From assembly GCA_045106675.1 (NCBI GenBank), contig JBGCFA010000014.1, forward strand, positions 1 to 64,000: a stretch of 64,000 bases of DNA, given 5' to 3'. Below, in pieces: positions 3,728 through 50,612 of the stretch. Both the position numbers and the translations under genes were made by a program. The stretch is from Bacteroidia bacterium (GTDB taxonomy: Bacteria; Bacteroidota; Bacteroidia; J057). Position 1 is the first letter of the stretch; each line of letters opens with the position of its first letter. The notes under the pieces were generated by a model that saw only the letters and a list, made by a program, of their open reading frames with translations, had not been told where the DNA came from and searched no databases.

Positions 3728-3756
3728 GGTCCCTTTAGTAAATAGGTCAAAACCGT

Positions 3757-5109: not shown

Positions 5110-5145
5110 GATTTCGATAGGCAGAATTCAAATGCCAGAGTCAAA

Positions 5146-5210
5146 CTGCAGCATGTAAATTTGAAAAGGAGCGATTCCTTTCCGATTTTACATACTGCAG
5201 TTTTTATTTT
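5146..5210 (+). terminator. Rho-independent terminator after ffh.
   Basis: An inverted repeat ctgcagcatgtaaa...tttacatactgcag forms a 13-bp stem with one mismatch and is followed by tttttatttt. Confidence 0.6.
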
Positions 5211-5236
5211 TGGCTCACCCTTCAAGCTCTACTACA

Positions 5237-18165: not shown

Positions 18166-18199
18166 AACTCATATTAACACTCAACCATATTATTAACGC

Positions 18200-20377: not shown

Positions 20378-20490
20378 TATTAAGTAGAAAGTACTGAGTA
20401 GGTCAAATCTTATTTCAATAATTTTGCTTCCTACTGCTATGCTATCCCAAGTACTTCATACTTTGTACTAAGTACTTAATACTAAAAAAA

Positions 20491-21132
20491 ATGTACACAA
20501 CGCTGACAATAGGGAGGGGCCATTGGCTTCTCCCGCTTTCCCTAAGTTTGCTGTTTTTATCCTGTACGGAAACGCTTTCAGATGTTGGGCTTAAACGCCA
20601 AACGATAGAAGCCCTCGTACAAAGTTCACAGCAAAAGCAAACCTACATTTATGAGGAAGAAGGGGAAGAGATAGAAGAGGAACAACAATGGTCCCAAATT
20701 GATCGCCAAAACGGTAATTGGGCCTACCTCGAAGTCTACAACCAGTTTCTAACCGAAAGCGGTCAGCAAGAGTACAATCTCTACGAATTTCAATTTGATC
20801 CACACAATGTCGGGGCGCGTTTTCCGATCCTCGAATATGAACTCAGGATATACCAAGATAGTGCTTGGTTTGCCCTGACCAATGAATTAGAAGCCAGTCT
20901 GGATAGCGTATTGATCCATGAAGTAGATACACTCTATCGTCTTCTTGGCTACGCACACAAAGGCGACCCGGCCCCTGGCCATATGCGCTATTGGTCTCCA
21001 GAATATGGCACCGTCCTCACTTGGTATGGCGAAAGTCGATACTTCGAACTTCACAAAGCCTATCAAGGATTGGACCCAGCACGCTTAACGCTTTTGAAAG
21101 GCCTCGCCTTTCAGGATACTCAAAAACAATGA
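20491..21132 (+). CDS. Hypothetical lipoprotein. Its stop overlaps the start of the giant AAA+ gene (ATGA at 21128-21132).
   Basis: 213 aa. LLPLSLSLLFLSC has a lipobox. An acidic stretch EEEGEEIEEEQQ follows. I recognise no known domain. Confidence 0.5.
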   Translation: MYTTLTIGRGHWLLPLSLSLLFLSCTETLSDVGLKRQTIEALVQSSQQKQTYIYEEEGEEIEEEQQWSQIDRQNGNWAYLEVYNQFLTESGQQEYNLYEFQFDPHNVGARFPILEYELRIYQDSAWFALTNELEASLDSVLIHEVDTLYRLLGYAHKGDPAPGHMRYWSPEYGTVLTWYGESRYFELHKAYQGLDPARLTLLKGLAFQDTQKQ

Positions 21133-25967: not shown

Positions 25968-26053
25968 ACTTTCTCACTAGTTTCATGTGAAAAACAAAAT
26001 TAAATAGTGGCATATGTGAGGATGCTACTGTTAGGTGCAAGTAAAAAAACAGA

Positions 26054-26542
26054 ATGAAGAATTTTAATCACTACGTATCAATCTATAAAGAACAACTCGA
26101 TAAAGGGGACATATTAATTGCATATAATGGATTAGTGAAATTTGTTATGCAATTAAGAACAGATTTTATTAAAAATCTCTCTGAGCGCTATGCATTTTCA
26201 GGTATTCTTCACGGATACATGGATTACACTTACTTCTATTTCACCAACGAATTTTTGAAAAGCAAAAAATTAAAATTGGGACTAGTGCTAAATCACTTAG
26301 AAATGAGGTTTGAGATTTGGCTTTTAGGAAATACAAAAGACATTCAAAAATCATATTGGAATGCTTTAAAAGAATCAGAATGGAACAAAGGCAGAAAAGA
26401 AATGCCTGAGTATTCGATTTTAGAAATAGTTATCGAAAAGGAACCAGATTTTAATGACTTAAGGCTGTTATCTCAAAAAATTGAAAATAAATTGATTGTA
26501 ATATCTGATGAAATTGTAAATGCAATCGAAAACTTGGATTAA
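26054..26542 (+). CDS. Hypothetical protein in an AT-rich islet.
   Basis: 162-aa ORF. Local GC is clearly lower than in the flanking genes. I recognise no motif. Confidence 0.4.
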   Translation: MKNFNHYVSIYKEQLDKGDILIAYNGLVKFVMQLRTDFIKNLSERYAFSGILHGYMDYTYFYFTNEFLKSKKLKLGLVLNHLEMRFEIWLLGNTKDIQKSYWNALKESEWNKGRKEMPEYSILEIVIEKEPDFNDLRLLSQKIENKLIVISDEIVNAIENLD

Positions 26543-26745
26543 TCAAATGAAACCTGCACCTAACATGGTCTACGAGTTAGTCATTCGTCGCGGGCTCCTC
26601 GATCCCGTAGGCAGTCCGGTCGTTAGCAGTAATTGAAGAAAAAGCATGAATGAACAAAATTTCCAAATAGAATTTGGAGCATAATGTTTGGAGTTTCAAT
26701 TCCGCTACTATTTTTATACTAAACGTTATGTATAACTGAAAAAAA

Positions 26746-27519
26746 TTGATGGAATATCTGCTGATCATCTTGGGCTTCTTATTGCTTGTTAGTTGCGAAA
26801 ATATGATCCCTCCTGCTAAAGAAATCGTCGAAGTAGTGGCTTGGGATGGCATGGGTAAAGCAATTGAGGAAGGTGATACGCTTCAGTTCTTAATCACTGA
26901 AGAATATCGCCGTAATGATGTTGTTGGTTTTTTTTAGGCAGCGGTTGAAACGGATTCTCTAGTCCTAATACCTTCTCGAATCATCGGACTTACTGGAGAG
27001 TCTATTAAGATGAGAAATGGGGTGATTTACATAAATTCCCAAGCATACCTTGATCCTATTGATGTTAATAGACCTTATGCATTGCATTTAGGATTACGCG
27101 ATAGTACATTTTTTGCAGGGACCAATTTCGAACAATCAGGTTCTCCCCCGAAAAGCTTTTTTGTCTTGGACCTAAGGACAACAGAACTCGCACTAGTCGA
27201 TGACAAATGGATGAATGTAAACGAGATATCACGCATGGAAAATATCCACTCGGCAGGGGATGTTATAGGAGGGACAGTTGAGAATAATTGGAATAGATAT
27301 AATTGGGGTCCATTCAAGATTCCTAATGTAGGCGATAAAGTTGTTTTGAATGATAAAAATGAAAGATTATATGAATCTCTATTCTTTGAGAAGAGGAAAA
27401 AAAACCTAGTAACAACTGAGTGTTATTTTTTGATAAGCGATGATAGAGGGACATTATATGATTCAAGATTTATTGGCTTGATCCCTAAAAGGGCAATTAT
27501 TGGGAAAGTGATGACATAA
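26746..27519 (+). pseudogene. Signal-peptidase-I (LepB)-like gene interrupted by an in-frame TAG at 26935-26937. The catalytic Ser and Lys positions are substituted.
   Basis: ORFs 26746..26937 and 27010..27519 are in the same frame. Read-through gives ...GDTLQFLITEEYRRNDVVGFF*AAVETDSLVLIPSRIIGLTGESIKMRNGVIYINSQ...SDDRGTLYDSRFIGLIPKRAIIGKV. This is collinear with LepB boxes GD.L.V...RGDIVVF / YIKRVIGLPGD / GDNRDNS.DSRYWG.VP...I.GKA. The SSM catalytic Ser position reads WDGM, and the catalytic Lys position (YIKR) reads SRII. Confidence 0.55.
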
Positions 27520-27582
27520 CTCTTATCCGAAATGATTAGGATGAAAAAAGGTGTTAAATTATGGATAGCTTAAAACATTAGA

Positions 27583-28248
27583 ATGACAGTCCAAGAAATC
27601 CTCTCTCAACTCGAATCCCTCAGCGACGAAAGAAGACGGAAGCACAACACTAAAAATGGTGCTGGTGACAATCAATTTGGCGTGCCAATGGGTGAAATCC
27701 GCAAAGTGGCCAAGAAGCTAAAAACTAATCATGAGTTGGCTTTGAAACTTTGGGAAACCGGCAATATCGAAGCTAGGCTGGTAGCTATCCTTATTATCAA
27801 ACCCAAAGACTTATCGCCAGACAAAGTAGATCAATTGGTTCGTTCTGTGGGCTTTTTTCAAGTAGCAGATTGGCTCAATGCATATATCGTAAAAAAACAT
27901 CCCGAAAAGGAAACACTTCGTCAAGGCTGGATGCAGGCTAATGATCCAATGGCAGCCCGTGCAGGCTGGAGTTTAACTGCCGAACGAGTGGAGCGCAGTC
28001 CAGAAGGAATCGACCTTCCCGGATTACTCGATCGCATCGTAGCCGAAATGCTTATAGCCGACCCCTTGGTACAATGGACCATGAACAATACGCTTGTAGG
28101 AATTGGTGTCCATCATCCTGAATATCGAGAACGTGCGCTTGCGATAGGGGAGAAGTTGGGCGTTTATCGTGATTATTCTGTACCTAAAGGCTGTACATCA
28201 CCTTTTGCTCCGATGTGGATCAATAAAATGGTGAGTCAGCAGAGCTAA
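27583..28248 (+). CDS. DNA alkylation repair protein (AlkC/AlkD-like HEAT-repeat family).
   Basis: 221 aa. The N-terminus ...RRRKHNTKNGAGDNQFGVPMGEIRKVAKKL...LWETGNIEARLVAIL matches the pattern of the DNA_alkylation family. Confidence 0.65.
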   Translation: MTVQEILSQLESLSDERRRKHNTKNGAGDNQFGVPMGEIRKVAKKLKTNHELALKLWETGNIEARLVAILIIKPKDLSPDKVDQLVRSVGFFQVADWLNAYIVKKHPEKETLRQGWMQANDPMAARAGWSLTAERVERSPEGIDLPGLLDRIVAEMLIADPLVQWTMNNTLVGIGVHHPEYRERALAIGEKLGVYRDYSVPKGCTSPFAPMWINKMVSQQS

Positions 28249-35168: not shown

Positions 35169-38100
35169 ATGTGGTTGACACAATTTAGGCGGAGACCTCT
35201 GCTACTCGTTCTTCTTTTTACTGCTTTTTCGGCCTTTACTCCTTTATTTCTGCCTCCTCCCGGACTTACTAGTCCAGAAGCAATAGGACCATTTCTCAAC
35301 AATACCTTACCTGATAAAACGCCAGGCAATGGAGGTAGTGTTGCATGGAGTGTGACTCCGGCTTACATCAATCTATATTTTGATGATCCTTTGGTGATTG
35401 TTCCTGATGAGCGTGCAAACAAGATTTTTGTAGGTTCACGCGATGGCGTGCTAGAGGTTTTTGATGACAACCCCAATGTTACGACTAAGCAAACAGTAGT
35501 CGATCTGCGCACACAGGTGGCAGAGGTTTGGGATGCTGGTTTCTTAGGCATGGCACTCCACCCAGATTTTGGCTTAGCCGGATCTCCCGACGCCAATTAT
35601 GTGTATCTCTATTACACTGCTAAAGGAGCAAATGGCCAAAATGGTCCGTTTAGCTGTGGAGGTGGTTGTTTTACATGTTTCGATAACCCCAATTTTTTCG
35701 GTAGTTATTTGCGACTTTCTCGCTTTACCTTAGATCCGAGTAATTATACGATTGATCCTGCCACTGAAGTCCGAATGTTCAATATCCGCCAATACAACGG
35801 TACTCACCGTGGTGGTGGAATGGTTTTTGGCGACGATGGCTATTTATACTTAACAATTGGAGATCAAGCGCGCTATACTGGTGCATTGAACATCGTCGAT
35901 AACTTCGAAGGTGGAGTTGTTAGACTTGATGTTGATCAACAAGGAGGAAGTGTCAGCCATGCTCCGCGTCGTAAAATGGGCGTTGAAACGGGGCTTTCAG
36001 ACGAGTTTACGGGTGTTGGATACTATGTACCCAACAGTAACCCTTGGCAAGCTCCTGATAATAGCCTCTTTGAGGAATTTTATACTGTAGGACACCGTAG
36101 TCCTCACCGTATGACCAAAGACCGTGCTACCGGAGATTTATTTATCGGTGAAGTTGGCGGTGGCCAACGCGAAGAAATCAACATCGTAGAAAGCGGGCGA
36201 AACTATGGCTGGCCAATCTTTGAGGGAAACCTCGGCCCGAGTAATCGTTGTAATTCAGGAACCACAATCAATTTTGGTACTTATAAGCCGCCATTGACAG
36301 ATTTTTTGCGTAGCGAAGCCAATGCTATCATTGGTGGCTATGTGTATCGTGGCAATAACTACCCCAATATTGCTGGCCAATATATTTGTGGAGGATATTC
36401 ACAAAATCGAATCTTCAGCATTGATCCTGCTACAGGAACCAAAACAGTATTGACTAGCTTTACTCCAGGTGGATTGATCACCTTTGGCGAATCCAATGAT
36501 GGCGAACTCATCATGGGCCGTCAAAACGGCAATACTAATTTATATGCCCTTACTGGTACAGGAATTGGTGCACCGGCTCCAACTTTACTTTCGCAAGTAG
36601 ATGCATTTTCAGACTTGCAGACGCTTACACCAAAAGCAGGAGTGATTCCTTATGATATGATCGAGGACTTCTGGTCTGATGGCGCGGATAAAGATCGCTG
36701 GATAGCTATCCCTAATGATGGGACACATGATACTCCAGATGAGCAAATCCAATTTTCTGAAAATGGCAACTGGACGTTCCCCAAGGGGGCGGTCCTCATC
36801 AAGCACTTCGAACTGTTTGGCAAACGTCTAGAGACTCGTTTTGAAGTTCACGGCATAGATGGTACTTACTATTATCTCACCTATAAGTGGAATGCCCAAG
36901 GTACGGATGCAACATTACTTACTGACGGGCTTGATGAAACGATCACCGTCAATGGACAAAGTCAAGTATGGCATTTTCCTAGTACGAGTGAATGTCAAAA
37001 CTGTCACCAATCTGCAAGTGGATTTGTACTGGGAGCCAGAACGCGTTATCTCAACCGTGATATCGTCTACCCTCAAACGGGTTTGAGTGCAAATCAATTA
37101 GTGAGTCTTAGTCATATCGGTATCCTAGATCAACCAATTTCTGATACTGATGCAGCAAATTATCTAACGGCAGTCGCCAAGGATGATCCCAATGCCAGTT
37201 TAGAGATTAAGGCGCGTTCATACCTTGACCTCAATTGTTCTTATTGCCACCAGCCGGGTACAGGCAATCGTGCTGTTTTTGACGCACGCTTAACGACAGA
37301 TCTCTCGAATCAAGATATTATCAATGGTTCGGTTATCGAAGCCCTCGGTCTGAGTGACGCAAGGGTCATCGTTCCACAGAATGTGGGCCAATCAGTGACT
37401 CACTATCGTATGAACTCTCTCTTAAGCGGGGTAGCAATGCCTCCTTTAGCTAAAAATAAAATTGATACCGAAGGCGTCCAGCTGATCGAAGACTGGATCA
37501 ACAGCCTAACACCAGATACGACCCAAAACTTAGTCGTTGTGGGTGATGCTGTCCAACAAGCTGGCGGTTGTTATGAATTGACCGCTGCACAAAATAGCTT
37601 AGCAGGAGCTGCTTGGTATCCTGAAGTAATCAGCCTCGATGAAGATGCCACCATTACTTTCAATATTGGTATGGGAAGCAATGATGCGGGTGCCGATGGA
37701 GCAACCTTTATCTTCCAAAATCAAGGTACTGATGTTATCGGTACATTAGGTGGTGGATTAGGAGCTACGGGCATAACCCCTTCTTTGGGTATTTCATTTG
37801 ACACTTATGGACAAGTTGATGACCAAATCGTGATTTGGCAAAATGGCGCTATTGCTACTGCCTTAGCCGGTCCGGTATGTGCGCTGCCTTCATGTGTCAA
37901 TATTGAAGATGGTGGTACACATGCAGTTGAAATCCAATGGGATGCAGGCCTTCAGCGTTTGCAAGTCCTTTTTGATGGTTCGCTGCGTGCTACTTATACC
38001 GACAATGTCGTACAAACCATTTTTGGCGGCAATCCTTGGGTCTATGTCGGAGCTACTGCTGCGACTGGCGGACTCAATAATCTCCATGAGATCTGTAATT

Positions 38101-41100
38101 TTGATCTCGATGCGACCTTCCCGCCTGAGCAAGTAAATCCCGGTGGCACAGGTATTACAGCCAGTTACTTCAACAATATTGACTTTACTAGTCCTGCCTT
38201 CACACGTATTGATCCCCAAATCAATTTTGCTTGGGGCAATGATTCTCCTGATCCATTGATCACAGACCCCAATACCTTCTCTGTTAGATGGGAAGGTGGT
38301 TTAGTGGCACCTTATACAGGAACGTTTACCTTTTACTCTACTACCGATGATGGTGTGAGACTATGGGTAGATGGTGTCTTAGTCATTGATCAATATATCG
38401 ATCAAGCGCCTACCGAGTGGACTGGTACTTATGATTTGGTTGCTGGGGAATTGGTTCCTTTCAAGATGGATTATTATGAGCGTGCTGGTGGTGCTGTGGC
38501 TAAACTAGAATGGGCGGGTCCATTTACAGAGCGCCAATTTGTGCAGCCTACTTTCCTTTTCCCCGTTGGGGCGGTGTATTCTCCTCAGCCTCCGGTGGCT
38601 TCCTTTACGGTAACGCCTAATGTAGGCATCGCACCATTACCGGTCATCTTTGATGCGATAGCCTCAAATGATCCAGACGGTAGCATCGCAAGCTATGACT
38701 GGGACTTTGGTGATGGTAATACGGCTACTGGCCTTACGCCACTTCATACCTACAATACTGATGGTACTTATAATGCTCGCCTGATCGTAACCGATGATGG
38801 TGGCAAGACTGATACTGCTTTCCAAACGATACAGGTGGATGCCTCTAATACGGCACCTGTCGCTAGTTTCACGGCTTCGCCGAACGCTGGTACGGCTCCT
38901 CTTTTGGTAAGTGTCGATGCGACTGCGTCGAACGATGACAATGGTATCCAGACTTATGATTGGGACTTTGGCGATGGTGCTACTGGCAACGGACAGATTA
39001 CCGATCATACTTATCTAGTTGGTGGTACTTTTACCATCACTCTGATCGTCAGTGATCAAGAAGGACTAAAAGATACTGCGACGACTAGTATTGATGTACA
39101 ACCAGCAGGGGGCTACTGTCATGTGCTTGCTAATGGAGAAGTCGTGATTGAAGCTGAAAACTTCAGCGATAATGTTAGTGGATCTGGTGGTGCAAGTGCT
39201 ACTACTTGGCAGATCTATAACGATGCTGCTGCCAGTGGAGGCGTTGCGCTACGCGCAGAACCTAATACTGGTGTCTGGACAGGACTCAATCTCAATGGAC
39301 CTCGTCTCGATTACGATATTTTGTTTGACGTACCAGGTCAATATTATGTATACGTTCGGGCTAGTGCTGCATCTGGTTCAGACGATTCCTTCCACGCTGG
39401 TTTGAATGGTAACTCCGTTACTAATCAATCTGGCACCGGTATGGGAGTCAATGGTCCTTGGGACTGGTCTGAGAGAGCTAATAATTATGAAGTAGTCGTA
39501 ATCAACGTACCGAGTACAGGTAAGCATACCTTCAATCTCTGGATGCGTGAGGACGGTACGCAAGTAGATAAGATCGTGATCAAGGCAGCTAGTGCTACTC
39601 CTTCGGGTAACGGCCCTGCTGAAAGTCAAATCGGTGATTGTGGCACTAGCGTGGGTAACCAAGCTCCGATTGCCAACTTCACTTCAGATGTGATTTCAGG
39701 TTTCGCACCATTGCCAGTGAACTTTGATGCTGCTAACTCTACTGACAATGAAGGTCCAATCGCTAGCTATAGCTGGAACTTTGGTGATGGCAATACTGCT
39801 GCGGGTGTTACCGCTAGCAATACTTATTCACAAGCGGGTATTTATACGATCAGCCTTACCGTAACAGACCAAGGTGGACTTAGCGATACCTATGATGCAC
39901 AGGTTCAAGTCAGCAATGATCCCGGAAATGGAGAAATTTGCTTTGATGAAGCTGGCGGTGAGTTGGTAATTGAAGCTGAAAATTACTCAGCGCTTGGTGC
40001 TGGTACTGGTAGTGCTGCGGGAGTAGCTTGGGTCAACTTTACTGATGCGAGCGCAAGTAATGGTGCTGGAGTAAGAGCTGAACCTAATACAGGTACTTGG
40101 ACAGGACTCAATCTCAATGGCCCTCGTCTTGACTACAATGTCAATTTCAATGCTGCTGGAACTTATCAAGTATATGTCCGTACTAGTTCACCTACTGCCA
40201 ATGATGATTCTTATCATGTAGGACTCAATGGAGTAGGGGTAACCAATCTTTCTGGTTATGGTATGGGAGGCGTTGGTCCATGGTTTTGGGCTTCTGGTGC
40301 TAATGATGGTGATCAAGTAGAGATCGTCGTACCTGCTGCTGGTAAGCATACCATTAGTGTTTGGATGCGTGAAGATGGCGTAGCTTTAGATAAGTTGGTT
40401 ATCACTCAATTGAGTGCCCCAACAGCTGCTGGACCAATCGAAAGTAGCCAAGTTACTTGTGGCAATGCCGCTAACTTAGCGCCAATCGCAAGCTTTACAG
40501 CAACGCCTAGTAGTGGAATCGCTCCTCTTCCTGTAGCGGTTGATGGCAGCACTTCTTCTGATCCCGATGGACAGATTGCTGCTTATGCTTGGGACTTCGG
40601 TGATGGTACTACCACCTCGGGTCTAACGGCCAATCACACTTACAACAATGCAGGTACTTTCAATATCGTATTGACGGTAACAGATACCGCTGGCTTGAGT
40701 AGTCAGACTAGCCAGTCGATTACGGTTTCTCCTTCGGGCAACGGGCCGCTCTGTTTTGACGAAGTCAATGGAGAACTCGTGATGGAAGCGGAAAATTATT
40801 CTGCTATCATCCCAGGAACGGGTAATGCCGCTGGTCATACTTGGCAAACTTACACAGAGGCTTCAGCTAGTGGCAGCGCTGCTGTTATCGCTACTCCAAA
40901 TACTGGCGCTTCTGCAGGTTTAAATCTCACTGGTCCACGTTTGGACTACGAGATCAACTTTGCTACTGCTGGTACTTATCGAGTCTTTGTGCGTAGTGCT
41001 GGTGCAAGCAATGCCGATGATTCTTACCATGTTGGTCTCAATGGCGTTTCTACTACTAACCTCTCTGGTTATGGTATGGGAGCCAATGGCCCTTGGGCTT

Positions 41101-41840
41101 GGAAAGATGTGGCGAATAATAGTGATCCAGTTACTCTCGTGGTAGCTACACCGGGTCAGTACGTATTCAATCTATGGATGCGTGAAGATGGAGTAGAAGT
41201 GGATAAAATCGTTATGAGAATCATCCCAACTACTTTCAGTGGACTAGGACCCGTAGAGAGTCCGCGTAATCCATGTGGAGCGCCTGCCTTAATGCTTAGT
41301 CGTAACTTTGGTGTCGAAGGCTATGCACAAGATGCTAACATAAACTGGGGCAATTTCTACGAAGAGTTTGAAGATCAGTATATCCTCCAACGTTCATTTG
41401 ATGGCAAAATCTATGAATTATTAGAAAAGGACGAAATCATCGTAGATAAGGAACTCAATACTTATACCGATCCTAACATCCGTACTTATGATGCTGATAA
41501 GGTTTATTATCGCTTGCAAGTAGTGGATGCGTTCGGACAAGTCCGTGAAACTAGAGAAGGCAGTCTGAATTTGAGAACCTCCTTTGCGAGTCTCAATCTA
41601 CAGGCTTATCCTAATCCTGCGAATACAAAGTTGAGCTTGAAATACGCCAACCAAAGTGAAGAAACCCTCCGTTTGAGAGTCATCTCTTCAACTGGGCAAA
41701 CGATCTATACACAGTCTATCGACTCCAATGCGGCAGAAGGTATAGTGAAACTCGATGTCTCTGAGTGGGCTGCTGGAATTTACTTTATTCAGCTGACCAA
41801 CGATAGCGCGAGTCAGGTCGTTAGGGTATTGATATACTAG
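35169..41840 (+). CDS. Giant (2,223 aa) T9SS-secreted multidomain protein. The domains are a PQQ-dependent soluble sugar dehydrogenase beta-propeller, a di-heme cytochrome c region, a legume-lectin/ConA-like domain, a PA14 domain, four PKD domains interleaved with three copies of an unassigned beta-sandwich (CBM-like) domain, and a T9SS CTD.
   Basis: Signal peptide. GSDH motifs FLGMALHPDF, LYLTIGD, GHRSPHRMT and EINIVESGRNYGWP at about 35350-36580. CxxCH motifs CQNCH at about 36990 and CSYCH at about 37243. A lectin segment GGLGATGITPSLGISFDTYGQ at about 37510-38140. A PA14 segment (ITASYFNNIDF...RWEGGLVAPYTGTFTFYSTTDDGVRLWVDGVLVIDQY) at about 38150-38530. PKD domains (ASYDWDFGDGNTATG...) at about 38590, 38850, 39660 and 40490. 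The repeated domain (GELVIEAENYS...NTG.WTGLNLNGPRLDY...DDS.H.GLNG...WMREDG..VDKIV) at about 39110-39640, 39920-40440 and 40740-41260. The C-terminus ...GIYFIQLTNDSASQVVRVLIY is a T9SS CTD. Confidence 0.85.
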   Translation: MWLTQFRRRPLLLVLLFTAFSAFTPLFLPPPGLTSPEAIGPFLNNTLPDKTPGNGGSVAWSVTPAYINLYFDDPLVIVPDERANKIFVGSRDGVLEVFDDNPNVTTKQTVVDLRTQVAEVWDAGFLGMALHPDFGLAGSPDANYVYLYYTAKGANGQNGPFSCGGGCFTCFDNPNFFGSYLRLSRFTLDPSNYTIDPATEVRMFNIRQYNGTHRGGGMVFGDDGYLYLTIGDQARYTGALNIVDNFEGGVVRLDVDQQGGSVSHAPRRKMGVETGLSDEFTGVGYYVPNSNPWQAPDNSLFEEFYTVGHRSPHRMTKDRATGDLFIGEVGGGQREEINIVESGRNYGWPIFEGNLGPSNRCNSGTTINFGTYKPPLTDFLRSEANAIIGGYVYRGNNYPNIAGQYICGGYSQNRIFSIDPATGTKTVLTSFTPGGLITFGESNDGELIMGRQNGNTNLYALTGTGIGAPAPTLLSQVDAFSDLQTLTPKAGVIPYDMIEDFWSDGADKDRWIAIPNDGTHDTPDEQIQFSENGNWTFPKGAVLIKHFELFGKRLETRFEVHGIDGTYYYLTYKWNAQGTDATLLTDGLDETITVNGQSQVWHFPSTSECQNCHQSASGFVLGARTRYLNRDIVYPQTGLSANQLVSLSHIGILDQPISDTDAANYLTAVAKDDPNASLEIKARSYLDLNCSYCHQPGTGNRAVFDARLTTDLSNQDIINGSVIEALGLSDARVIVPQNVGQSVTHYRMNSLLSGVAMPPLAKNKIDTEGVQLIEDWINSLTPDTTQNLVVVGDAVQQAGGCYELTAAQNSLAGAAWYPEVISLDEDATITFNIGMGSNDAGADGATFIFQNQGTDVIGTLGGGLGATGITPSLGISFDTYGQVDDQIVIWQNGAIATALAGPVCALPSCVNIEDGGTHAVEIQWDAGLQRLQVLFDGSLRATYTDNVVQTIFGGNPWVYVGATAATGGLNNLHEICNFDLDATFPPEQVNPGGTGITASYFNNIDFTSPAFTRIDPQINFAWGNDSPDPLITDPNTFSVRWEGGLVAPYTGTFTFYSTTDDGVRLWVDGVLVIDQYIDQAPTEWTGTYDLVAGELVPFKMDYYERAGGAVAKLEWAGPFTERQFVQPTFLFPVGAVYSPQPPVASFTVTPNVGIAPLPVIFDAIASNDPDGSIASYDWDFGDGNTATGLTPLHTYNTDGTYNARLIVTDDGGKTDTAFQTIQVDASNTAPVASFTASPNAGTAPLLVSVDATASNDDNGIQTYDWDFGDGATGNGQITDHTYLVGGTFTITLIVSDQEGLKDTATTSIDVQPAGGYCHVLANGEVVIEAENFSDNVSGSGGASATTWQIYNDAAASGGVALRAEPNTGVWTGLNLNGPRLDYDILFDVPGQYYVYVRASAASGSDDSFHAGLNGNSVTNQSGTGMGVNGPWDWSERANNYEVVVINVPSTGKHTFNLWMREDGTQVDKIVIKAASATPSGNGPAESQIGDCGTSVGNQAPIANFTSDVISGFAPLPVNFDAANSTDNEGPIASYSWNFGDGNTAAGVTASNTYSQAGIYTISLTVTDQGGLSDTYDAQVQVSNDPGNGEICFDEAGGELVIEAENYSALGAGTGSAAGVAWVNFTDASASNGAGVRAEPNTGTWTGLNLNGPRLDYNVNFNAAGTYQVYVRTSSPTANDDSYHVGLNGVGVTNLSGYGMGGVGPWFWASGANDGDQVEIVVPAAGKHTISVWMREDGVALDKLVITQLSAPTAAGPIESSQVTCGNAANLAPIASFTATPSSGIAPLPVAVDGSTSSDPDGQIAAYAWDFGDGTTTSGLTANHTYNNAGTFNIVLTVTDTAGLSSQTSQSITVSPSGNGPLCFDEVNGELVMEAENYSAIIPGTGNAAGHTWQTYTEASASGSAAVIATPNTGASAGLNLTGPRLDYEINFATAGTYRVFVRSAGASNADDSYHVGLNGVSTTNLSGYGMGANGPWAWKDVANNSDPVTLVVATPGQYVFNLWMREDGVEVDKIVMRIIPTTFSGLGPVESPRNPCGAPALMLSRNFGVEGYAQDANINWGNFYEEFEDQYILQRSFDGKIYELLEKDEIIVDKELNTYTDPNIRTYDADKVYYRLQVVDAFGQVRETREGSLNLRTSFASLNLQAYPNPANTKLSLKYANQSEETLRLRVISSTGQTIYTQSIDSNAAEGIVKLDVSEWAAGIYFIQLTNDSASQVVRVLIY

Positions 41841-43826: not shown

Positions 43827-44966
43827 TCAAAGATTGATAGTCGGATAAGCTTTCCGATCAAAACAAACGGTATCGGCGTTTTGTTTTACAATCTGATCTA
43901 ATTCGAGAAGAGATGCTAGGGCGATTTGAGAATAATTTTGCGAAGCGTTTTTGAAGCCTCCATACTCCGTTCGCCAGAGGCGTTGCAATAATTCGGGCCC
44001 ATACATATCAGGGGCAATCTGATTGATCGCACCACCTACATTACCTGCTCCGGCGTGATAGATGTGTAGCACTAATAATCTGAACCAAAGTTCATTTTCA
44101 TTAGGTGGTAGGTTCCACTTTTGCACGATACGCCTCGCTTGTGGGATACAACGAGTTCTTAGCAAAGCTGCTGCAGCCCATGCTGCTTTGAAAAAATCAG
44201 CTCTTTCATCTACAGTATCGTTGACGATCAGGCCATGTTCGCGGGCTACTGACTCCATCAGTTGAAATGAACCATATGCTCCGACAGGTGATAAAGCCAA
44301 TTGACCGGGACTTTCTATCAATAGGATCGCTTGCGCATACCAAGGATCAACTTTTGCTTTTTCAAACGCTTGTATGCCTCTTGCTAGCGTAGGGATAACT
44401 CGATCAAAATGATAGTAATGGGACTTGCCAAAGGTGATCATCAACTGCTCTGTACTATCAAGGACATGTACTCTTTGTAAACTGTCTTTGAAGTTTGTCT
44501 GTTGATTGTTGGAAAGGCTACTCCATTGCTTCCAGTTGATTCCGCCCAAGATCCTCCGACTTGGAGTGGCACTAATCAAAGCTGTATCGTTGGGTAAACG
44601 CATGATAGTACGCCAAAAACGCACTTGGTGCATGGTATCCCAACGTTGCTGATAGAGACTCGGGTCCTCCAATAGCGTATAACAAACGCCAGGGGTAAAG
44701 ACGCGTTCCGATGTACGGGTAAAAGCAGATTTGGGAATATGATCCAGGTTTATGCCCTTGGGAAGATAGGAGCTTAGTTCAGCAAGGCTGTCGTTGCTAT
44801 AAACGGTGAAAGAGATCGAAGCCTCCGCTAGTATTGCTTCAAATGATTCGTCTTCAAATGAAGCAGCCCGGACGGAATCTCCATCGGTAAAAAAATGTAT
44901 GGGTAGGAATATGGCGAGCCATATTCCTAACATCCAAACAAATTTTTGGCCAATCCGAACGATCAT
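43827..44966 (-). CDS. Lytic transglycosylase (SLT domain) protein, secreted or membrane-anchored.
   Basis: 379 aa with an N-terminal hydrophobic segment. The SLT-like block is AQAILLIESPGQLALSPVGAYGSFQLMESVA (E-S ... GAxG.MQLM). Confidence 0.55.
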   Translation of the reverse strand: MIVRIGQKFVWMLGIWLAIFLPIHFFTDGDSVRAASFEDESFEAILAEASISFTVYSNDSLAELSSYLPKGINLDHIPKSAFTRTSERVFTPGVCYTLLEDPSLYQQRWDTMHQVRFWRTIMRLPNDTALISATPSRRILGGINWKQWSSLSNNQQTNFKDSLQRVHVLDSTEQLMITFGKSHYYHFDRVIPTLARGIQAFEKAKVDPWYAQAILLIESPGQLALSPVGAYGSFQLMESVAREHGLIVNDTVDERADFFKAAWAAAALLRTRCIPQARRIVQKWNLPPNENELWFRLLVLHIYHAGAGNVGGAINQIAPDMYGPELLQRLWRTEYGGFKNASQNYSQIALASLLELDQIVKQNADTVCFDRKAYPTINL

Positions 44967-45196
44967 ATTATTGATTTGAAGGTAGAATTTACTATCATAG
45001 AGGCAAACATTATGCCCTGATCCACTGGTCGGATATTATTGGAGGGGCAATTAGATTATTATGGGGTCCAACGGTAATAAACTGCTGACACACAGATTTG
45101 TCCATTTGAGGTTGATGTTAACACTACTTAGCAAAGCATACTGATAAATTGCTCGAATCTGTTATTTTTGTGGTGAGAGAACGGTAAATTAAATCA

Positions 45197-46933
45197 ATGG
45201 CGGTCAAAAAAGACCATACAGCGGATGTATTATATCCCGGTAAAAAAATTGCAGGAAAGTATAGCTTACAAGCTAGGCTTGGCCGTAGCAATCTTGCCGA
45301 CGTTTGGTTAGCAGAAAAAGACAAGAAGATTTGGGCGGTAAAGTTATACTTGCTGCCTCATGCTCTATCTGAAGAGCAATGGGAATCCATGCAATCGGTT
45401 CTCGAAAATCTACCACAATTTCCTTCCCCTTTATTGCAACGTCCCGTCGAGCATGGAATGATCGATGGGCTTCCGTATGTAATATTACCTTATTGCCATT
45501 ATGGCTCTGCACACCAATGGGCAGGTAAACTCAGTGAGAGTGAATTAGCGACTTTTATGTATCAAGGAGCCAAAGCGCTCAAAATGCTACATGAAGCCAA
45601 TCCGCCTATTTTACACCGTAATTTGCATCTGTTCAATTTTTTGATTGATCAAGATCTTAATTATGTGCTCAGTGATGTTGCTTTGTCTGGAGCGTTGCGT
45701 TTGATCTGTGAAGAGGAAGAAAGCGGGTATATCAATATTGCCTACCAAGCTCCTGAGACTTTTCAGGAGGCTGGATATGGACCCCCTGCAGACATCTTTT
45801 CATTTGGTATGTGTATGTTCCAAATGGCAACAGCTCAACTCGCTTTTGGGCCTCAAGGTGGACAACGATTATTGCATTGGGTACAAACTCCTAAGCTTCC
45901 CGATTATTTTTCGGACAGATTTAATCAGATTATACATGTCTGCATTGGTAGAGGGGCCTCAGGTAGGCCAAGTGCCGATATTTTGGTCCGCCTTGCGGAA
46001 CGCTACCTCGCAGAAGGAGAATGGAAATCTGTCCCGGGTTTTTCGTTTGGAGTTGGACGTTCCGCAAAGCGGAAATCGACTCTATTTGATCGGAGAAAGT
46101 CTAAATCTAAACAAGAACCTAAGCCCAAACGTAAACCTACACCAATAAGCCAGCAACGAGCGAATCCATATACTTGGGGTAAAAAAGGGTTTTCAATAAG
46201 TACCAAATGGCTGGTTGCCGCTTCGATAGCTATCGGGATTGGAATCACATTGTATTTTATCAATCCATTGCTAGAGCTAAGGTCAAATGAAAGCTCTCCA
46301 TCTGAAATTAGTAATCAGGGGCCAATTTTTGCTCCTACGCCTAGTCCTGAGCCGATCGCCAGACCGACTATAGTTGATTCAGGGCCAACACCAGAAAGCT
46401 TAGCGGCCAAAGAAAAGGAAATTGCGGAGGCCATCTTAGCTGAGTCAAACAAAACTGTTGAAGTGGAGGTGGTGAAACAGCCACCTGTAATTCCGGCCAC
46501 TACTCCAGCCGCAAGGAGCGAAAATCCGGAGCCAAAGGCTAGTAGCGCCGCTTTGCCATCAGAGATAAAACCCAGTAATGCTAAACCGGCAACTCCTCCC
46601 AAAACTGCCAAACCGAAAGTAGTCAGAATACTTTCGCGAGATTTGCGGAACCTGAAAATGTTGATTTCGGATGCCAATAAGCTAGAATCTCAACTTTCTG
46701 ATTTGGCCTTTAAGGTGGATAGCCTTAATTCCAATGATCAGGCTTATATCAAACAATTAAATAGTGAACTCAATCTACTAGGCCGTCAAATTGAAAGCCG
46801 AGCAGTATTTGATGATGCTCAGAACATATTAGGTTGGAGAAAAGAAGCGAATAACGCTTCTTGGTTAAAGCAAATGAATGCTTCTGTTAGGCAACACAAA
46901 GGCAATCTGAAACGCATACAAGAAAGTATCTAG
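45197..46933 (+). CDS. Membrane-anchored Ser/Thr-protein-kinase-like protein, predicted pseudokinase. It has an N-terminal kinase-like domain, one TM helix and a Pro-rich/coiled-coil C-terminal region.
   Basis: 578 aa. The kinase landmarks are AVKL (beta3 Lys), HRNLHLFNFL (HRD to HRN), LSDVALSG (DFG to DVA) and AYQAPETF (APE). The TM helix is WLVAASIAIGIGITLYFINPLL at about aa 335. PTPSPEP...AKPATPPKTAKPK low-complexity sequence follows, then a coiled coil. Confidence 0.65.
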   Translation: MAVKKDHTADVLYPGKKIAGKYSLQARLGRSNLADVWLAEKDKKIWAVKLYLLPHALSEEQWESMQSVLENLPQFPSPLLQRPVEHGMIDGLPYVILPYCHYGSAHQWAGKLSESELATFMYQGAKALKMLHEANPPILHRNLHLFNFLIDQDLNYVLSDVALSGALRLICEEEESGYINIAYQAPETFQEAGYGPPADIFSFGMCMFQMATAQLAFGPQGGQRLLHWVQTPKLPDYFSDRFNQIIHVCIGRGASGRPSADILVRLAERYLAEGEWKSVPGFSFGVGRSAKRKSTLFDRRKSKSKQEPKPKRKPTPISQQRANPYTWGKKGFSISTKWLVAASIAIGIGITLYFINPLLELRSNESSPSEISNQGPIFAPTPSPEPIARPTIVDSGPTPESLAAKEKEIAEAILAESNKTVEVEVVKQPPVIPATTPAARSENPEPKASSAALPSEIKPSNAKPATPPKTAKPKVVRILSRDLRNLKMLISDANKLESQLSDLAFKVDSLNSNDQAYIKQLNSELNLLGRQIESRAVFDDAQNILGWRKEANNASWLKQMNASVRQHKGNLKRIQESI

Positions 46934-46938
46934 AAATT

Positions 46939-48333
46939 TTGTCAAAACATTTTTCCCAGCACCCTGTCGACCACCCTCGCTTATTTGCCAATAAATACAA
47001 ACTCTCTCGTCAGCTTTCATATGATGGCCAAGGTGATCTCTGGCTAGCTGAGAAGGATGGGCTAGCTTATTGGATCTATTATATACCTTTAACTACTGTC
47101 CAGGCGATACAACTTTGGGAGAAGTGGGAGCTTAAACTGGAAGACTTAAAGGCAAAAATGATTACCAAAGCCTTAATCTTGCCAACTGAGAGTCAAAAAG
47201 AAGAAGATTTGGCAGTAGTTGTCTTCCCCGCTCCCAATGGAGAGAGTATTGGCAAGGAACAAAAGACTCTTTCTGAATTAGATTTGGCCTTACTCATGCT
47301 GGACATGAGCCAATCCCTAATTGATGCAGAAGACGGTCAAAGTCAAATGACTATTTCTCCGGCCTATATGTATCGGCGACAAGAAGGTGGTTTTTCTATA
47401 TTTGGATGGGGATTGAGGGCGCTAAATCAAACATTATCTGGTGAGCAAAGCGTTGAAGCACCAGCCTATTTAGCACCTGAATGTTTTGACCCTGCACAAG
47501 ATGTCGGTTCAGAAGCATCCATTTTTTCATTAGGCGTGAGTCTTTTTGAACTAGCAGCTGCTAAGCTGCCGTTTGGGATAAAGGGGGGAGCTCGCTTAGC
47601 TCAAGTCAATGTGCCGCTCCCAGAATTGCCTCAGTATTCAGAACGGTTTAATCATATTTTACAACTTATGTTGGCTCGAAAAGCCGACCGTAGGCCAAGT
47701 GCTGATACCGTATTTCGGCTGGCAAGTACTTTTATCAAAGAGCAGCAATGGAAGTCTGTAGGAGGTTTGTCTTTTGCACCTAGCCTTTCAGGAACGCCTC
47801 TTTCTACCCAAGTGGATGCTCCTAAGCAGCTTCCAAAAGTGGAAAAGCTCGTACAGAAAGAAAAAGTTAAGCGTTCTCCGAAGGAGGAAACTAAAACTGA
47901 GCCTAAGTCTGAGAAACCTAAGTCTGAGAAAAAGAATAAGCTATGGCTCGCCTTTATTCCAGTATTGGCGGGTATCGGGTTAGTCGCTTGGTTTTTGATG
48001 GGCCCAGATACAGTAGAGACATCAAAAGGCGACGATACAGGAACTCTGACTCTACAGTATTCAGATGAATTGAGGCATCTCGTAAAATCGAAATCGCACT
48101 TTGCAGAACTAATTGAAGCGATGGAAAGGAATCCTAATTTGCCTCCTACTGAAAAAACTTTTTTGCGACTGGCTCAGATGCAGCTGAAAAACTTAGAGAT
48201 GGAAATGCAGGAGTACTTATTGATGCGAGATGATAGTAGCCTGGCTTGGAAAGAGAAAACCGCCTACAATTGGTTGCAAAGCACCCAATCACAATTAAAT
48301 CGAAACATCCAGAATTTGGAGCTAATGCGTTAG
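46939..48333 (+). CDS. Paralogous membrane-anchored kinase-like protein that is more degenerate (no beta3 Lys and no HRD).
   Basis: 464 aa. It starts 5 nt after the previous gene. Shared blocks with its neighbour are DLWLAEKDG, APECF, S.F..G..LFE.A.A.LPFG and RPSADTVFRLAS..IKEQQWKSVGGLSFAPS. The TM helix is LWLAFIPVLAGIGLVAWFLM, and the C-terminal tail is helical. Confidence 0.6.
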   Translation: MSKHFSQHPVDHPRLFANKYKLSRQLSYDGQGDLWLAEKDGLAYWIYYIPLTTVQAIQLWEKWELKLEDLKAKMITKALILPTESQKEEDLAVVVFPAPNGESIGKEQKTLSELDLALLMLDMSQSLIDAEDGQSQMTISPAYMYRRQEGGFSIFGWGLRALNQTLSGEQSVEAPAYLAPECFDPAQDVGSEASIFSLGVSLFELAAAKLPFGIKGGARLAQVNVPLPELPQYSERFNHILQLMLARKADRRPSADTVFRLASTFIKEQQWKSVGGLSFAPSLSGTPLSTQVDAPKQLPKVEKLVQKEKVKRSPKEETKTEPKSEKPKSEKKNKLWLAFIPVLAGIGLVAWFLMGPDTVETSKGDDTGTLTLQYSDELRHLVKSKSHFAELIEAMERNPNLPPTEKTFLRLAQMQLKNLEMEMQEYLLMRDDSSLAWKEKTAYNWLQSTQSQLNRNIQNLELMR

Positions 48334-50612
48334 CTTAGACGGAATGGGATACTGAGGTTTTTGGCCAATGTAAAGTGAAAAGTAGAACCAATTTGATCTT
48401 TACTTTCTACCCAGATATTACCATGATGACGGTCCACAATCTTGCGACATATCGGTAGGCCAAGCCCACTGCCTTCATAATCTACTTTGCTGTGCAAACG
48501 CTTAAATAATAGAAATATCTGCTCATGATATTCTTTGGCGATACCGAGACCATTATCGGAGATACTAAATTGCCAATAATCACCATTGTCTTTGCCGCTA
48601 ATTACTATTTCGGGGCTAGTCTCATGCTTTCTAAACTTCAGTGAGTTGGAAATAAGGTTGAGAAAAACGCGATATAAGCCTGTTTCGTGTCCATTGATGG
48701 TCTCGGGCAAATCTAATACAATCAATACACCATTGTTCTCTTGCAGTACTTCCTCTAGATCTAATTTGATCCTTTTGAGTAAGCTTCCACATGAGATTTC
48801 TCGATATTCCATTGATTCATTGCTGACTCTCGAATATTGGAGTAAGTCTTGAACCAATTGATGCATATGCTTAGAAGCATCTAAAATCAGGTCTAGAAAT
48901 TCATTTGCTTCTTGATTGAGGTCTGTGCGATAACGAGATGCCAAGATTTGAGTAAACCCGATAATCGTACGTAGCGGTTCACGCAAGTCATGCGAAGCGA
49001 TGTAGGCAAATTTTTCTAATTCTGAATTGGATGAAATATATCGTTTAAGCTTTTGGTTGGCATCATCTAGTTCAGCAACTTTTATGTCCAATTCTATTTC
49101 AGCGGCTACTCGATCAGTGATATTTCGCGAATTGCCTTGAACAAAAATGAGGTCCCCTAATGGAGATTTTATTGGGACAAAAACGGATTCAATCCAGATG
49201 GTTTTACCTGCTTTAGTGATGACCCGATAGCGAATTTCAGATTTGTTAGGAATATTTGGTTTTAGGATTTCGGCCACTAAAGCTCGATCATCTGGATGCA
49301 CCAACTGAATCCAAGGTTTTTCCTCTAATTCGATTGCCTCATAGCCCAAGAGGTTGATCACACTAGGTGAGAGGAAACTAATGGTAGCCTGTTCATTAAT
49401 TTTGAATAAACTAATGAGGTCTATGGTGTTTTGGGCGATCAGTCGATACCGCTCTTCGCTTTGCTGTAGCCTTTCGGTTGCAATCTTTTCTTCAGAAATA
49501 TCAACTACTGTCCCTAAGAGTTCAACGATTTCTCCTGATTGATTGGGTAGGGCCGAAACGGTTACATTTACCCATATGATTTTTCCATCCTTGCGGATAT
49601 ACCGCTTGGTCATGGTATAAGAAGAAGTTTCCTGATTGATGACCTTTTGTCTCAAAGCATGATTGGGAACTATATCATCAGGATGGGTCAATTCTCTAAA
49701 AGCTAACTGCTTAAGCTCTTCCAATGTGTACCCAATAATGCGTTCAAAAGCGGGGTTGGCATTGATTACCTGACCGTGTATATCAACTACGTTTATCCCT
49801 ACTAGGGTATTATTATAATAGGATTCAAATTGTTTTCTATGCTGAATGAGTTCTTCACTAATCCTTTTTTCTTCGGTAATATCCTGTATTGTGGCCAATA
49901 AATAAGGACCTTGTTCTTCTTCTAGAACACGGACCCATAATTTAGCCCACATACTTCCTCCTCCTTTTTTTACATATCTCTTTTCAAATGAAATCCATCC
50001 GTTTTCTCCGGAGAGCAATTTGGCGATAAGCTCTTTATTGGGAGGAGCATCATCTGGATGACTCAATTCATAAAAAGAACCTCCTGCTAATTCTTCGGGA
50101 TCATATTCAACCATCTTTGCGAAGGCATGGTTAACCTGGTATATTTTTCCATCCAATCCGCTGACAGACAATCCCAGAGCATTGTTATAAAACATTGCTT
50201 CAGGAATAGAGAACTCGGTGGAGTTTGGACCGATTAGTCGTTTTATAGCACTTTTTCTAGAAAGATAAGCTGCTGGATGTTCTGGAAGTTGAAGGACAAA
50301 AGTATCTCGTAACTCTGGATGCTGTGAAAATACGAAAGGGAGAATATGATACTCTTCCCCTGGAGCAGTGAGGGTGAATTGGATTGCTCCTTCAATTGCT
50401 TCCGCTTGATCTATAAGATCAGTTACTTTAGCTACTAAGGATGGATAGCGAATGTCTGAAATATGTTTGGGCTGTAATTCTTGATTCCAGTGAGATAATG
50501 TTTTTTCTGCTTTTTGAGAATGATATATGAAGTCTCCATTCTGGTTTAGGACAGATATTGGAGGCATTAAAGGAGTGAGCAGGTCTGACTGAATGTTGAC
50601 AGAAGTTTGCAT
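48330..50612 (-). CDS. Multi-PAS sensor histidine kinase (cytoplasmic; about four PAS/PAC modules, then HisKA and HATPase_c).
   Basis: 760 aa. The H-box is ASHDLREPLRTIIGF. The ATPase boxes are ISDNGLGIAKEY and GSGLGLPICRKIV. There are repeated PAS-type segments. Its stop overlaps the stop of the convergent pseudokinase gene (48330-48333). Confidence 0.88.
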   Translation of the reverse strand: MQTSVNIQSDLLTPLMPPISVLNQNGDFIYHSQKAEKTLSHWNQELQPKHISDIRYPSLVAKVTDLIDQAEAIEGAIQFTLTAPGEEYHILPFVFSQHPELRDTFVLQLPEHPAAYLSRKSAIKRLIGPNSTEFSIPEAMFYNNALGLSVSGLDGKIYQVNHAFAKMVEYDPEELAGGSFYELSHPDDAPPNKELIAKLLSGENGWISFEKRYVKKGGGSMWAKLWVRVLEEEQGPYLLATIQDITEEKRISEELIQHRKQFESYYNNTLVGINVVDIHGQVINANPAFERIIGYTLEELKQLAFRELTHPDDIVPNHALRQKVINQETSSYTMTKRYIRKDGKIIWVNVTVSALPNQSGEIVELLGTVVDISEEKIATERLQQSEERYRLIAQNTIDLISLFKINEQATISFLSPSVINLLGYEAIELEEKPWIQLVHPDDRALVAEILKPNIPNKSEIRYRVITKAGKTIWIESVFVPIKSPLGDLIFVQGNSRNITDRVAAEIELDIKVAELDDANQKLKRYISSNSELEKFAYIASHDLREPLRTIIGFTQILASRYRTDLNQEANEFLDLILDASKHMHQLVQDLLQYSRVSNESMEYREISCGSLLKRIKLDLEEVLQENNGVLIVLDLPETINGHETGLYRVFLNLISNSLKFRKHETSPEIVISGKDNGDYWQFSISDNGLGIAKEYHEQIFLLFKRLHSKVDYEGSGLGLPICRKIVDRHHGNIWVESKDQIGSTFHFTLAKNLSIPFRLS

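Follow-up and report, generated by a model that had tools for sequence, protein, structure and literature searches.

Tandem membrane-anchored pseudokinases from a rare family of uncultured Bacteroidota

Introduction

What is a protein kinase fold for once its catalytic residues are gone, and why should two such folds be encoded side by side? The question is raised by a locus in a 64,000-nucleotide (nt) stretch of contig JBGCFA010000014.1, from the metagenome-assembled genome of an uncultured member of the Bacteroidia (GCA_045106675.1). Throughout, "the window" means this whole stretch, and PK1 and PK2 are our names for the two kinase-fold genes at 45197-48333 and for their products; in the NCBI annotation the first is a "protein kinase" and the second a "hypothetical protein." A first-pass annotation, made from the letters of the sequence, had described them as a pair of increasingly degenerate pseudokinases, a pseudokinase being, in the definition of the Atlas preprint, a protein in which at least one of the VAIK Lys, the HRD Asp and the DFG Asp has been lost.

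We find that PK1 and PK2 belong to a small, old family in which every member lacks the catalytic Asp, and that both genes are maintained by purifying selection. The reading that we favor, with a probability of roughly 0.6, is that the two proteins constitute a non-catalytic transmembrane scaffold or sensor, made together and probably acting as a heteromer.

Results

Two adjacent genes encode complete kinase folds

PK1 (45197..46933, forward strand; 578 amino acids, aa) ends with a TAG at 46931-46933 and, after 5 nt, PK2 (46939..48333, forward strand; 464 aa) begins with a TTG at 46939, which is the spacing that the first-pass annotation had given. Both products score above the Pfam gathering score for Pkinase (PF00069), which bears out the kinase fold that had been read in them: PK1 is matched over the whole domain (69.7 bits, E=3.4e-19), and PK2 through its C-lobe only (33.6 bits against a cut-off of 31.7, E=3.6e-8). 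In AlphaFold2 models, which were built from the family alignments and are predicted structures only, both proteins have a complete bilobal kinase fold, with block values of the predicted local distance difference test (pLDDT) mostly at 84-97. Both models superpose on Staphylococcus aureus Stk1/PknB, the top Foldseek match, with TM-scores of 0.73-0.79 over about 270 columns, and the range against solved kinases is 0.73-0.81 over about 270 columns. Since AlphaFold2 and Foldseek give the full fold, the part of PK2 that is not seen by Pfam can be taken as a kinase N-lobe.

On the evidence of alignments, AlphaFold2 and Foldseek, the pseudokinase domain spans aa 16-275 of PK1 (45242..46021, forward strand; also matched by Pfam) and aa 13-270 of PK2 (46975..47748, forward strand), with the APE motif of the latter at aa 179-181. 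The two proteins are paralogs, 31% identical over 354 aa (E=2e-31). Their best structural and PDB sequence matches are Stk1/PknB and eukaryotic Ser/Thr kinases; they are not PASTA kinases, as the PknB/Stk1 profile NF033483 scores about 30 bits against a cut-off of 450, and no PASTA domain is found in either protein by Pfam.

The catalytic motifs are substituted, and the substitutions are conserved

For the motifs of PK1 there are three independent readings, one from a phmmer alignment to MST3 and two from MAFFT alignments with canonical relatives, and these agree with each other and with what had been seen in the sequence at first pass: the β3 Lys (A-V-K49) and the APE motif (A185-P186-E187) are present, HRD has become HRN and DFG has become DVA. 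In the catalytic loop, H140-R141-N142-L-H-L-F-N147, the catalytic Asp is replaced by Asn and the loop Lys by His; the metal-binding Asn of the loop (N147), the metal-binding Asp (D160 in D160-V161-A162) and the subdomain XI Arg (R257) are all present. Two departures from the canonical pattern had escaped the earlier reading. The Gly-rich loop is degenerate (LGRSNLA), and the position of the αC Glu is occupied by Val, with Val, Ile or Ala found there across all PK1 orthologs.

PK2 has lost more. The loss of its Lys and HRD had been noted, and appears in the alignments as WIYY, which places a Tyr at the Lys position, and as QMT (or a gap) at HxD; the catalytic-loop Asn (Tyr) and the DFG motif (GWG) have gone too, and the αC Glu and the Gly-rich loop are missing along with the β3 Lys. 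The APE motif and the subdomain XI Arg are present. No alternative alignment restores a catalytic Asp, either in PK1 or in PK2. Neither protein has the HRD Asp, or the full set of Lys, αC Glu and Gly-rich loop, that marks a catalytically competent Hanks kinase; both are pseudokinases in the operational sense, with a conserved substitution in the catalytic triad and genes that are maintained.

The same motif states are kept in six PK1 and eight PK2 orthologs (40-81% identity). Those of PK1 follow the pattern H-(R/G)-N...N, D-V-x and (A/V)-V-K, and those of PK2 are without Lys, HRD and DFG.

A rare family with a single origin of the dead state

The orthologs were found by a word-indexed search of 5.8 billion proteins and all come from uncultured Bacteroidota; among 185,579 genomes representing species, only 3 carry PK1. 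When 1.84 billion cluster representatives were searched exhaustively with an HMMER profile, the family came to about 10 clusters. Beyond the orthologs, this search returned five proteins (P0026-P0030; 207-295 bits), four of which match end to end, and below these the scores fall sharply to generic or canonical kinases, at 176 bits or less; one further relative, P0171, came from the indexed search. In JGI metagenomes a scan with the PK2 pattern gave no match, and a scan with the family pattern gave canonical kinases only, the best of them (locus L027) having HQDIKPDN and DFG and lying in a PP2C/FHA operon.

None of these six additional relatives has an Asp in HxD (H-L-S, H-H-T, H-G-S, H-Q-H, H-Q-A and H-G-N), and in all of them the loop Asn and the DFG Asp are present, the DFG position reading D-V-G, D-L-G, D-Y-C, D-M-I, D-T-A and D-Y-R. 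The family as a whole has four hallmarks: the loss of the HxD Asp, a juxta-kinase motif, a single transmembrane helix and a C-terminal three-helix domain (W...WL). All four are found in PK1, PK2, P0026-P0029 and P0171; P0030 agrees with them in its kinase domain, motif and transmembrane region, but its C-terminus is divergent or truncated.

In a neighbor-joining tree of the kinase domain, the pseudokinases form one clade (bootstrap 1.0) beside the canonical kinases, with P0026 grouping with the PK2 clade (0.96) and PK1 with P0027/P0030 (0.79). Given that all members lack the Asp and that they form one clade, the loss of the catalytic Asp was a single event at the base of the family. The PK2-like proteins P0026 and P0171, from a distant lineage, have the β3 Lys, the catalytic-loop Asn and the DxG Asp all present, and the PK2 branch has therefore degenerated stepwise, losing Lys, Asn and DFG Asp after the catalytic Asp. 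In the distant lineage, locus L023 (1-2451) also contains a tandem pair, of which P0026 is the downstream member; the partial gene upstream of it resembles PK1 (hhalign E=3.7e-29) and encodes the WKSVPGFSF motif, a transmembrane helix, a Pro-rich spacer and a "GWLRQMNASLSQH" tail. The duplication that gave PK1 and PK2 is thus old. The genes that lie downstream in L024 (704 aa) and in L023 were considered as candidates for a hidden pseudokinase, and were rejected (hhalign probability <2%).

The ratio ω (dN/dS) is quoted for the closest ortholog pair alone (81% / 74% identical), because comparisons with more distant orthologs are saturated (dS undefined); with dS at about 0.9-1.0 even in this pair, the values are approximate. 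For PK1, ω is 0.12 over the gene and 0.042 in the kinase domain, for PK2 it is 0.157 and 0.13, and the adjoining histidine kinase gene has a similar value (0.116). Ratios this low, comparable to that of the histidine kinase, indicate that PK1 and PK2 are maintained and are not decaying. The description of the pair as increasingly degenerate pseudokinases thereby gains in substance: the losses are conserved in orthologs under purifying selection, the loss of the Asp is family-wide, and P0026 and P0171 represent intermediates.

Topology, a juxta-kinase motif and a periplasmic domain

Each protein has one transmembrane segment, and ahead of each segment is a disordered linker rich in Lys and Arg. 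The helix of PK1 is placed at aa 338-358 (46208..46270, forward strand) by hydropathy and charge bias, with an AlphaFold2 helix at 336-355, and that of PK2 at aa 335-353 (47941..47997, forward strand) by hydropathy, charge bias and AlphaFold2. The 30 residues before the segment hold 8 Lys and Arg residues against 1 in the 30 residues after it in PK1, and 12 against 3 in PK2. Given this positive-inside bias, and with no signal peptide, the kinase domain is predicted to be cytoplasmic and the C-terminus periplasmic. The first-pass annotation had proposed an N-terminal kinase fold, a single transmembrane helix and an extracytoplasmic tail; the first two stand, but the tail is not a plain one, since both proteins end in a folded and conserved domain, as judged from AlphaFold2 and the alignment.

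Directly 3' of the kinase domain, PK1 has the motif W-K-S-V-P-G-F-S-F (aa 276-284; 46022..46048, forward strand) and PK2 has W-K-S-V-G-G-L-S-F (aa 271-279; 47749..47775, forward strand). The general form is W-K-S-V-x-G-(F/L)-S-F, and no family member departs from it at the W, the S, the G or the last F; the motif is missing from the canonical sister kinases. In PK1, AlphaFold2 models the motif as a short β hairpin.

Beyond the membrane, PK1 has a Pro-rich periplasmic spacer of about 120 aa (aa 359-477; 46271..46627, forward strand), with pLDDT <50; the spacer is fast-evolving (ω 0.28) and has no counterpart in PK2. It acts as the tether for a three-helix plus hairpin domain (aa 478-578; 46628..46930, forward strand; pLDDT 78-90 and alignment), and the corresponding domain of PK2 (aa 368-464; 48040..48330, forward strand; AlphaFold2 and alignment) is placed close to the membrane. 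These C-terminal domains, of about 95 aa, are homologous to each other and share two invariant Trp residues (W547 and W556 in PK1 numbering). Neither a Pfam scan nor a profile search against PDB sequences gave a significant match to the domain (best E=0.16).

Neighboring genes and promoter

The stop codon of PK2 (TAG, 48331-48333) overlaps that of a convergent gene (TAA, complement of 48330-48332), as had been observed at first pass. The gene (48330..50612, reverse strand) encodes a 760-aa histidine kinase of the architecture PAS(3-4)-HisKA-HATPase_c (Pfam), and its HisKA H-box, read from the translation, is intact (SHDLREP). Of its earlier description as a cytoplasmic kinase with four PAS domains, the first part is upheld, there being no transmembrane segment, and the second holds in part, with three to four PAS matches in Pfam.

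On the other side of the pair, a divergent intergenic region of 230 bp (44967..45196) separates PK1 from a membrane-anchored gene of the SLT-domain, lytic transglycosylase-like type (43827..44966, reverse strand; Pfam SLT 27.6 bits), the translation of which has the motifs ES, G-x-FQLM and YHAGAGN. A candidate Bacteroidetes-type -7 box, TATTTTTG, occupies 45163-45170 and is separated by 26 nt from the PK1 ATG at 45197. It fits the Bacteroidetes consensus, which we take to be TAnnTTTG, and it is the sole match in the 230-bp region, where 0.11 would be expected by chance (0.48 per kb per strand).

In the near clade, the gene order FA-hydroxylase, SLT-like (leftward), PK1-PK2 (rightward) and PAS histidine kinase (leftward) is kept wherever the flanks are visible (L001-L006, L014/L015). 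The distance from the PK1 stop to the PK2 start is 1-5 nt in every near-clade locus, and the spacing of PK2 and the histidine kinase gene ranges from -4 to +76 nt; the histidine kinase is adjacent in L001-L005 and L014, and the SLT gene lies upstream in L001-L003, L006 and L015. Synteny in these near relatives extends over the whole region, with the SLT, FAH, Metallophos and CoA-transferase genes also conserved, so that the adjacency of the histidine kinase cannot count as separate support for a link. At L023 the place downstream of the pair is taken by a DUF6851 gene instead of a histidine kinase, and L024 and L026 have other neighbors. The neighborhood emphasized by the first-pass annotation is therefore conserved in the near clade, but a functional link is weak, given the convergent orientation, the synteny of the whole region and the lack of a histidine kinase at L023.

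Elsewhere, in L025, an unrelated hybrid histidine kinase of 1309 aa (2563-6492, reverse strand; Reg_prop, HisKA, HATPase_c and receiver) is encoded by a gene convergent with that of the solo member P0028, and the two genes overlap by 53 nt at the 3' end of P0028. With this second, independent case, two of five independent contexts lie beside a histidine kinase, a small post-hoc count that is suggestive. The solo members also have a conserved divergent cluster of three secreted proteins (of about 370 aa, of about 260 aa and a TPR protein; 42-46% identical), found at L024 2994-7836, L026 3-3144 and L025 1-1042 and assigned to no Pfam family; the window contains no homologs of these, and the cluster is unrelated to its SLT gene.

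Other features of the window

The rest of the window is chromosomal housekeeping in character, with genes for Ffh, trigger factor, RelA/SpoT and topoisomerase, and an Rfam scan gave one tRNA only. A long gene on the reverse strand extends beyond the start of the window, which contains its 3' part (1-3039); it encodes a coiled-coil protein rich in Q, E and L, with 198-bp (66-aa) tandem repeats at 464-915. This gene accounts for the AT skew of -0.35 in the first 2 kb, and the idea that the skewed composition at 1-3 kb has a special meaning was dropped.

A 1658-aa protein with DUF3686 ("ATPase involved in DNA repair"), DUF7902 and AAA regions is encoded at 20991-25967. Upstream of it are open reading frames (ORFs) of 725 aa and 213 aa without a Pfam family, and downstream a DUF7000 gene is followed by a low-GC stretch at 26-28 kb (GC 0.37); the region 17500-28000 may be a repair or defense island. 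Finally, a secreted protein of 2223 aa is encoded at 35169-41840 (forward strand). It combines GSDH, lectin, PA14 and repeated PKD modules, and its C-terminal sorting tail of the type IX secretion system is in keeping with an origin in Bacteroidota; its repeated modules, of about 250 aa, are very similar among themselves.

Discussion

How might two kinase folds that have lost their catalytic residues be of use to the cell? In the reading that we favor, PK1 and PK2 would be made from one transcript as an old pair of single-pass inner-membrane proteins, whose Hanks-type domains would be without phosphotransfer catalysis; PK1, in particular, would have no residual activity. The two would assemble, probably as a heteromer. 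Their periplasmic domains would receive a periplasmic or envelope cue, or would serve as an anchor, and the conserved pseudokinase surfaces, strongly constrained in PK1, together with the W-K-S-V-x-G-F-S-F element, would bind or allosterically control cytoplasmic partners, whichever these may be. The suggestion of the first-pass annotation that the proteins are scaffolds or allosteric sensors and not catalysts may thus be right, going by their motifs. There are precedents for parts of such a mechanism: EssB/YukC is a monotopic membrane pseudokinase that recruits secretion machinery on dimerization, and the pseudokinase domain of MviN dimerizes and does not bind ATP (PMC12599244).

Several points weigh against this reading. 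The association of PK1 with PK2 is something that we infer. PK1 may bind nucleotide or have weak activity, as its Lys, Asn and DFG Asp are kept, and the ω values carry the uncertainty that comes with a dS near 1. A search of the window ORFs of at least 150 aa for active Hanks kinases, PP2C, FHA proteins and response regulators found none. Finally, solo family genes exist (L024-L026; P0027, P0028 and P0029), so that the partner paralog is not obligatory for the family.

The main rival is that PK1 is a weak or atypical kinase, or an ATP-binding switch, and that PK2 is its dead allosteric regulator, in the manner of HER2-HER3, LKB1-STRAD or the JH1-JH2 domains of JAK. We consider this improbable. 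In its favor, K49, N147, D160 and the APE motif are kept, the kinase domain of PK1 is extremely constrained (ω 0.042), and HER3, which has an identical HRN in its catalytic loop (HRNLAARN) and retains the Lys and the DFG Asp, binds ATP and has residual activity. It is opposed by the state of the active site, since Asp to Asn at the catalytic position is a classic kinase-dead substitution, the Gly-rich loop has become LGRSNLA, and all PK1 orthologs have Val, Ile or Ala for the αC Glu; the Asp has given way to different residues in different family members (N, S, H, A and T), which argues against a conserved substitute base. A quite different view would make the pair the membrane input module of the adjoining soluble PAS histidine kinase, passing on an envelope signal through contacts between pseudokinase and histidine kinase. 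The histidine kinase has no transmembrane segment of its own and lies directly downstream of the pair in every near-clade locus that shows this flank, even in L005, where PK2 and the histidine kinase are 39% and 58% identical to those of the window, and the unrelated hybrid kinase that overlaps P0028 could be set beside it. However, the convergent orientation means that the pair and the histidine kinase are not co-transcribed, the adjacency is part of a larger synteny and is replaced by other neighbors in L023, L024 and L026, and two contexts of five make a small count taken after the fact; we regard the proposal as unlikely. It is doubtful, to a still greater degree, that the pair works in envelope or peptidoglycan homeostasis with the divergent lytic transglycosylase-like protein, as PknB/MviN would suggest. 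The 230-bp control region common to the two transcription units is conserved in L001-L003, L006 and L015, the SLT-like protein has the motifs given above, both pseudokinases expose a periplasmic domain (that of PK1 on a long tether), and the MviN pseudokinase acts in peptidoglycan synthesis (PMC12599244); but the SLT match is modest, the adjacency is seen solely in the syntenic near clade (L023 being seen on its downstream side only), and the conserved divergent cluster of the solo members is unrelated to SLT.

Two further explanations can be given hardly any weight. Were PK1 and PK2 functionless duplicates of an active kinase in the course of decay, the kinase domain of PK2 might be expected to evolve fast, and it does so about four times faster than that of PK1 (dN 0.133 versus 0.034). 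Yet no locus has a disrupted reading frame, both proteins are modeled as folded with confidence, the pair is kept across lineages in which PK2 identity is down to 30-40%, and ω values of 0.12-0.16, comparable to 0.116 for the histidine kinase, effectively refute the idea. A role in anti-phage defense is just as improbable. Both a MADS MAD6-like and a PD-T4-6-like kinase are suggested by matches in PADLOC (mad6, 99.6 bits over residues 17-273, and PD-T4-6) and NCBIfam (MAD6, E=1e-11), but what is matched is the generic kinase domain (44 against an NCBIfam cut-off of 460 bits), the catalytic residues are gone, no further defense components adjoin the pair and its context is chromosomal housekeeping. 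We accordingly rejected membership of MADS MAD6 or PD-T4-6, the similarity being confined to the kinase domain and partner defense genes being absent.

Returning to the non-catalytic scaffold or sensor, a more specific version would have the pair as a pseudokinase-only transmembrane receptor: its periplasmic domain would detect a signal from the envelope, and direct contact of the pair with the PAS histidine kinase would control the latter. This is speculative, and we hold it to be a long shot; if true, Hanks-fold proteins would be serving as non-catalytic input modules of a two-component pathway, without Ser/Thr phosphorylation.

Comparison with known pseudokinases and kinases

The 2025 atlas and a review (PMC12599244) describe seven families of bacterial pseudokinases (ActPs1-3, GLW, CP1, DYD and DLHK), reported mainly from Actinobacteria, Proteobacteria and Cyanobacteria, and also cover EssB/YukC, MviN, SidJ and SelO. 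The seven families resemble PK1 and PK2 in being Hanks-fold bacterial proteins with a substituted catalytic triad. In all seven, however, the VAIK Lys is lost, whereas in PK1 and several other family members the loss is confined to the HRD Asp, with Lys and DFG Asp still in place. The GLW family has GLW for HRD and poly-Leu(/Trp) for VAIK, where PK2 has QMT and WIYY and PK1 has HRN and AVK. Bacteroidota, the phylum of the PK1/PK2 family, are not mentioned in the atlas or the review (PMC12599244), nor are tandem pairs or heterodimers. By these testable features, which are published feature descriptions rather than family profiles, PK1 and PK2 fall outside every described family.

In architecture and presumed action the pair is most like EssB/YukC, and in motif pattern most like the HER3-type receptor pseudokinases. 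HER3 (ErbB3) is likewise a single-pass protein with a cytoplasmic pseudokinase, and the HRNLHLFN of PK1 resembles its catalytic loop; in PK1 and PK2, however, the kinase domain is N-terminal to the transmembrane helix, there is no detectable specific homology, and the partner of PK1 is not an active kinase but the still more degenerate PK2. With EssB/YukC, a dimeric scaffold of the type VII secretion system T7SSb of Firmicutes with degraded catalytic motifs and Gly-loop (PMC12599244; PMC9600267), the pair shares a monotopic arrangement of N-terminal cytoplasmic pseudokinase, one transmembrane helix and extracytoplasmic C-terminal domain. The differences are that EssB/YukC is from another phylum and has another extracytoplasmic domain, that PK1 and PK2 are tandem paralogs, and that neither the 60 PDB sequence matches nor the 50 Foldseek matches listed for PK1 and PK2 include EssB/YukC. 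We could find no type VII secretion genes near the pair in the window.

The nearest relatives of the family are canonical membrane Ser/Thr kinases of Bacteroidota (P0007, P0031-P0037 and L027; 24-31% identity), with which it shares an FG-x-x-GG motif in the C-lobe and the order kinase, linker, transmembrane helix. These kinases keep GxGxxS, VA(I/L)K, HQDIKPDN and DFG, and they are without the W-x-SV-x-GFSF motif and the three-helix domain. Their operons (L007 4019-9260 and L027 1680-8253) contain genes for PP2C, FHA proteins, a second kinase-FHA protein and a trypsin-like FHA protein; the PP2C/FHA/kinase operon appears to be a recurrent Ser/Thr signaling cassette of Bacteroidota.

Significance

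The weight of these observations is limited by the extreme rarity of the family, about 10 clusters among the 1.84 billion representatives, and by its occurrence in uncultured organisms only. Bacterial pseudokinases have been catalogued, yet they are almost unstudied, and the PK1/PK2 family, from the Bacteroidota, displays another pattern of decay, in which the catalytic Asp was lost first and the Lys and the metal ligands were kept. New here are also a juxta-kinase motif of the family's own and an undescribed periplasmic domain. The tandem pair is ancient, and living intermediates, P0026 and P0171, record the stepwise loss of the ATP site in one of the two paralogs. The family would thus offer a natural example of the path from a receptor kinase to a non-catalytic signaling pair, in parallel to the receptor pseudokinases of eukaryotes.

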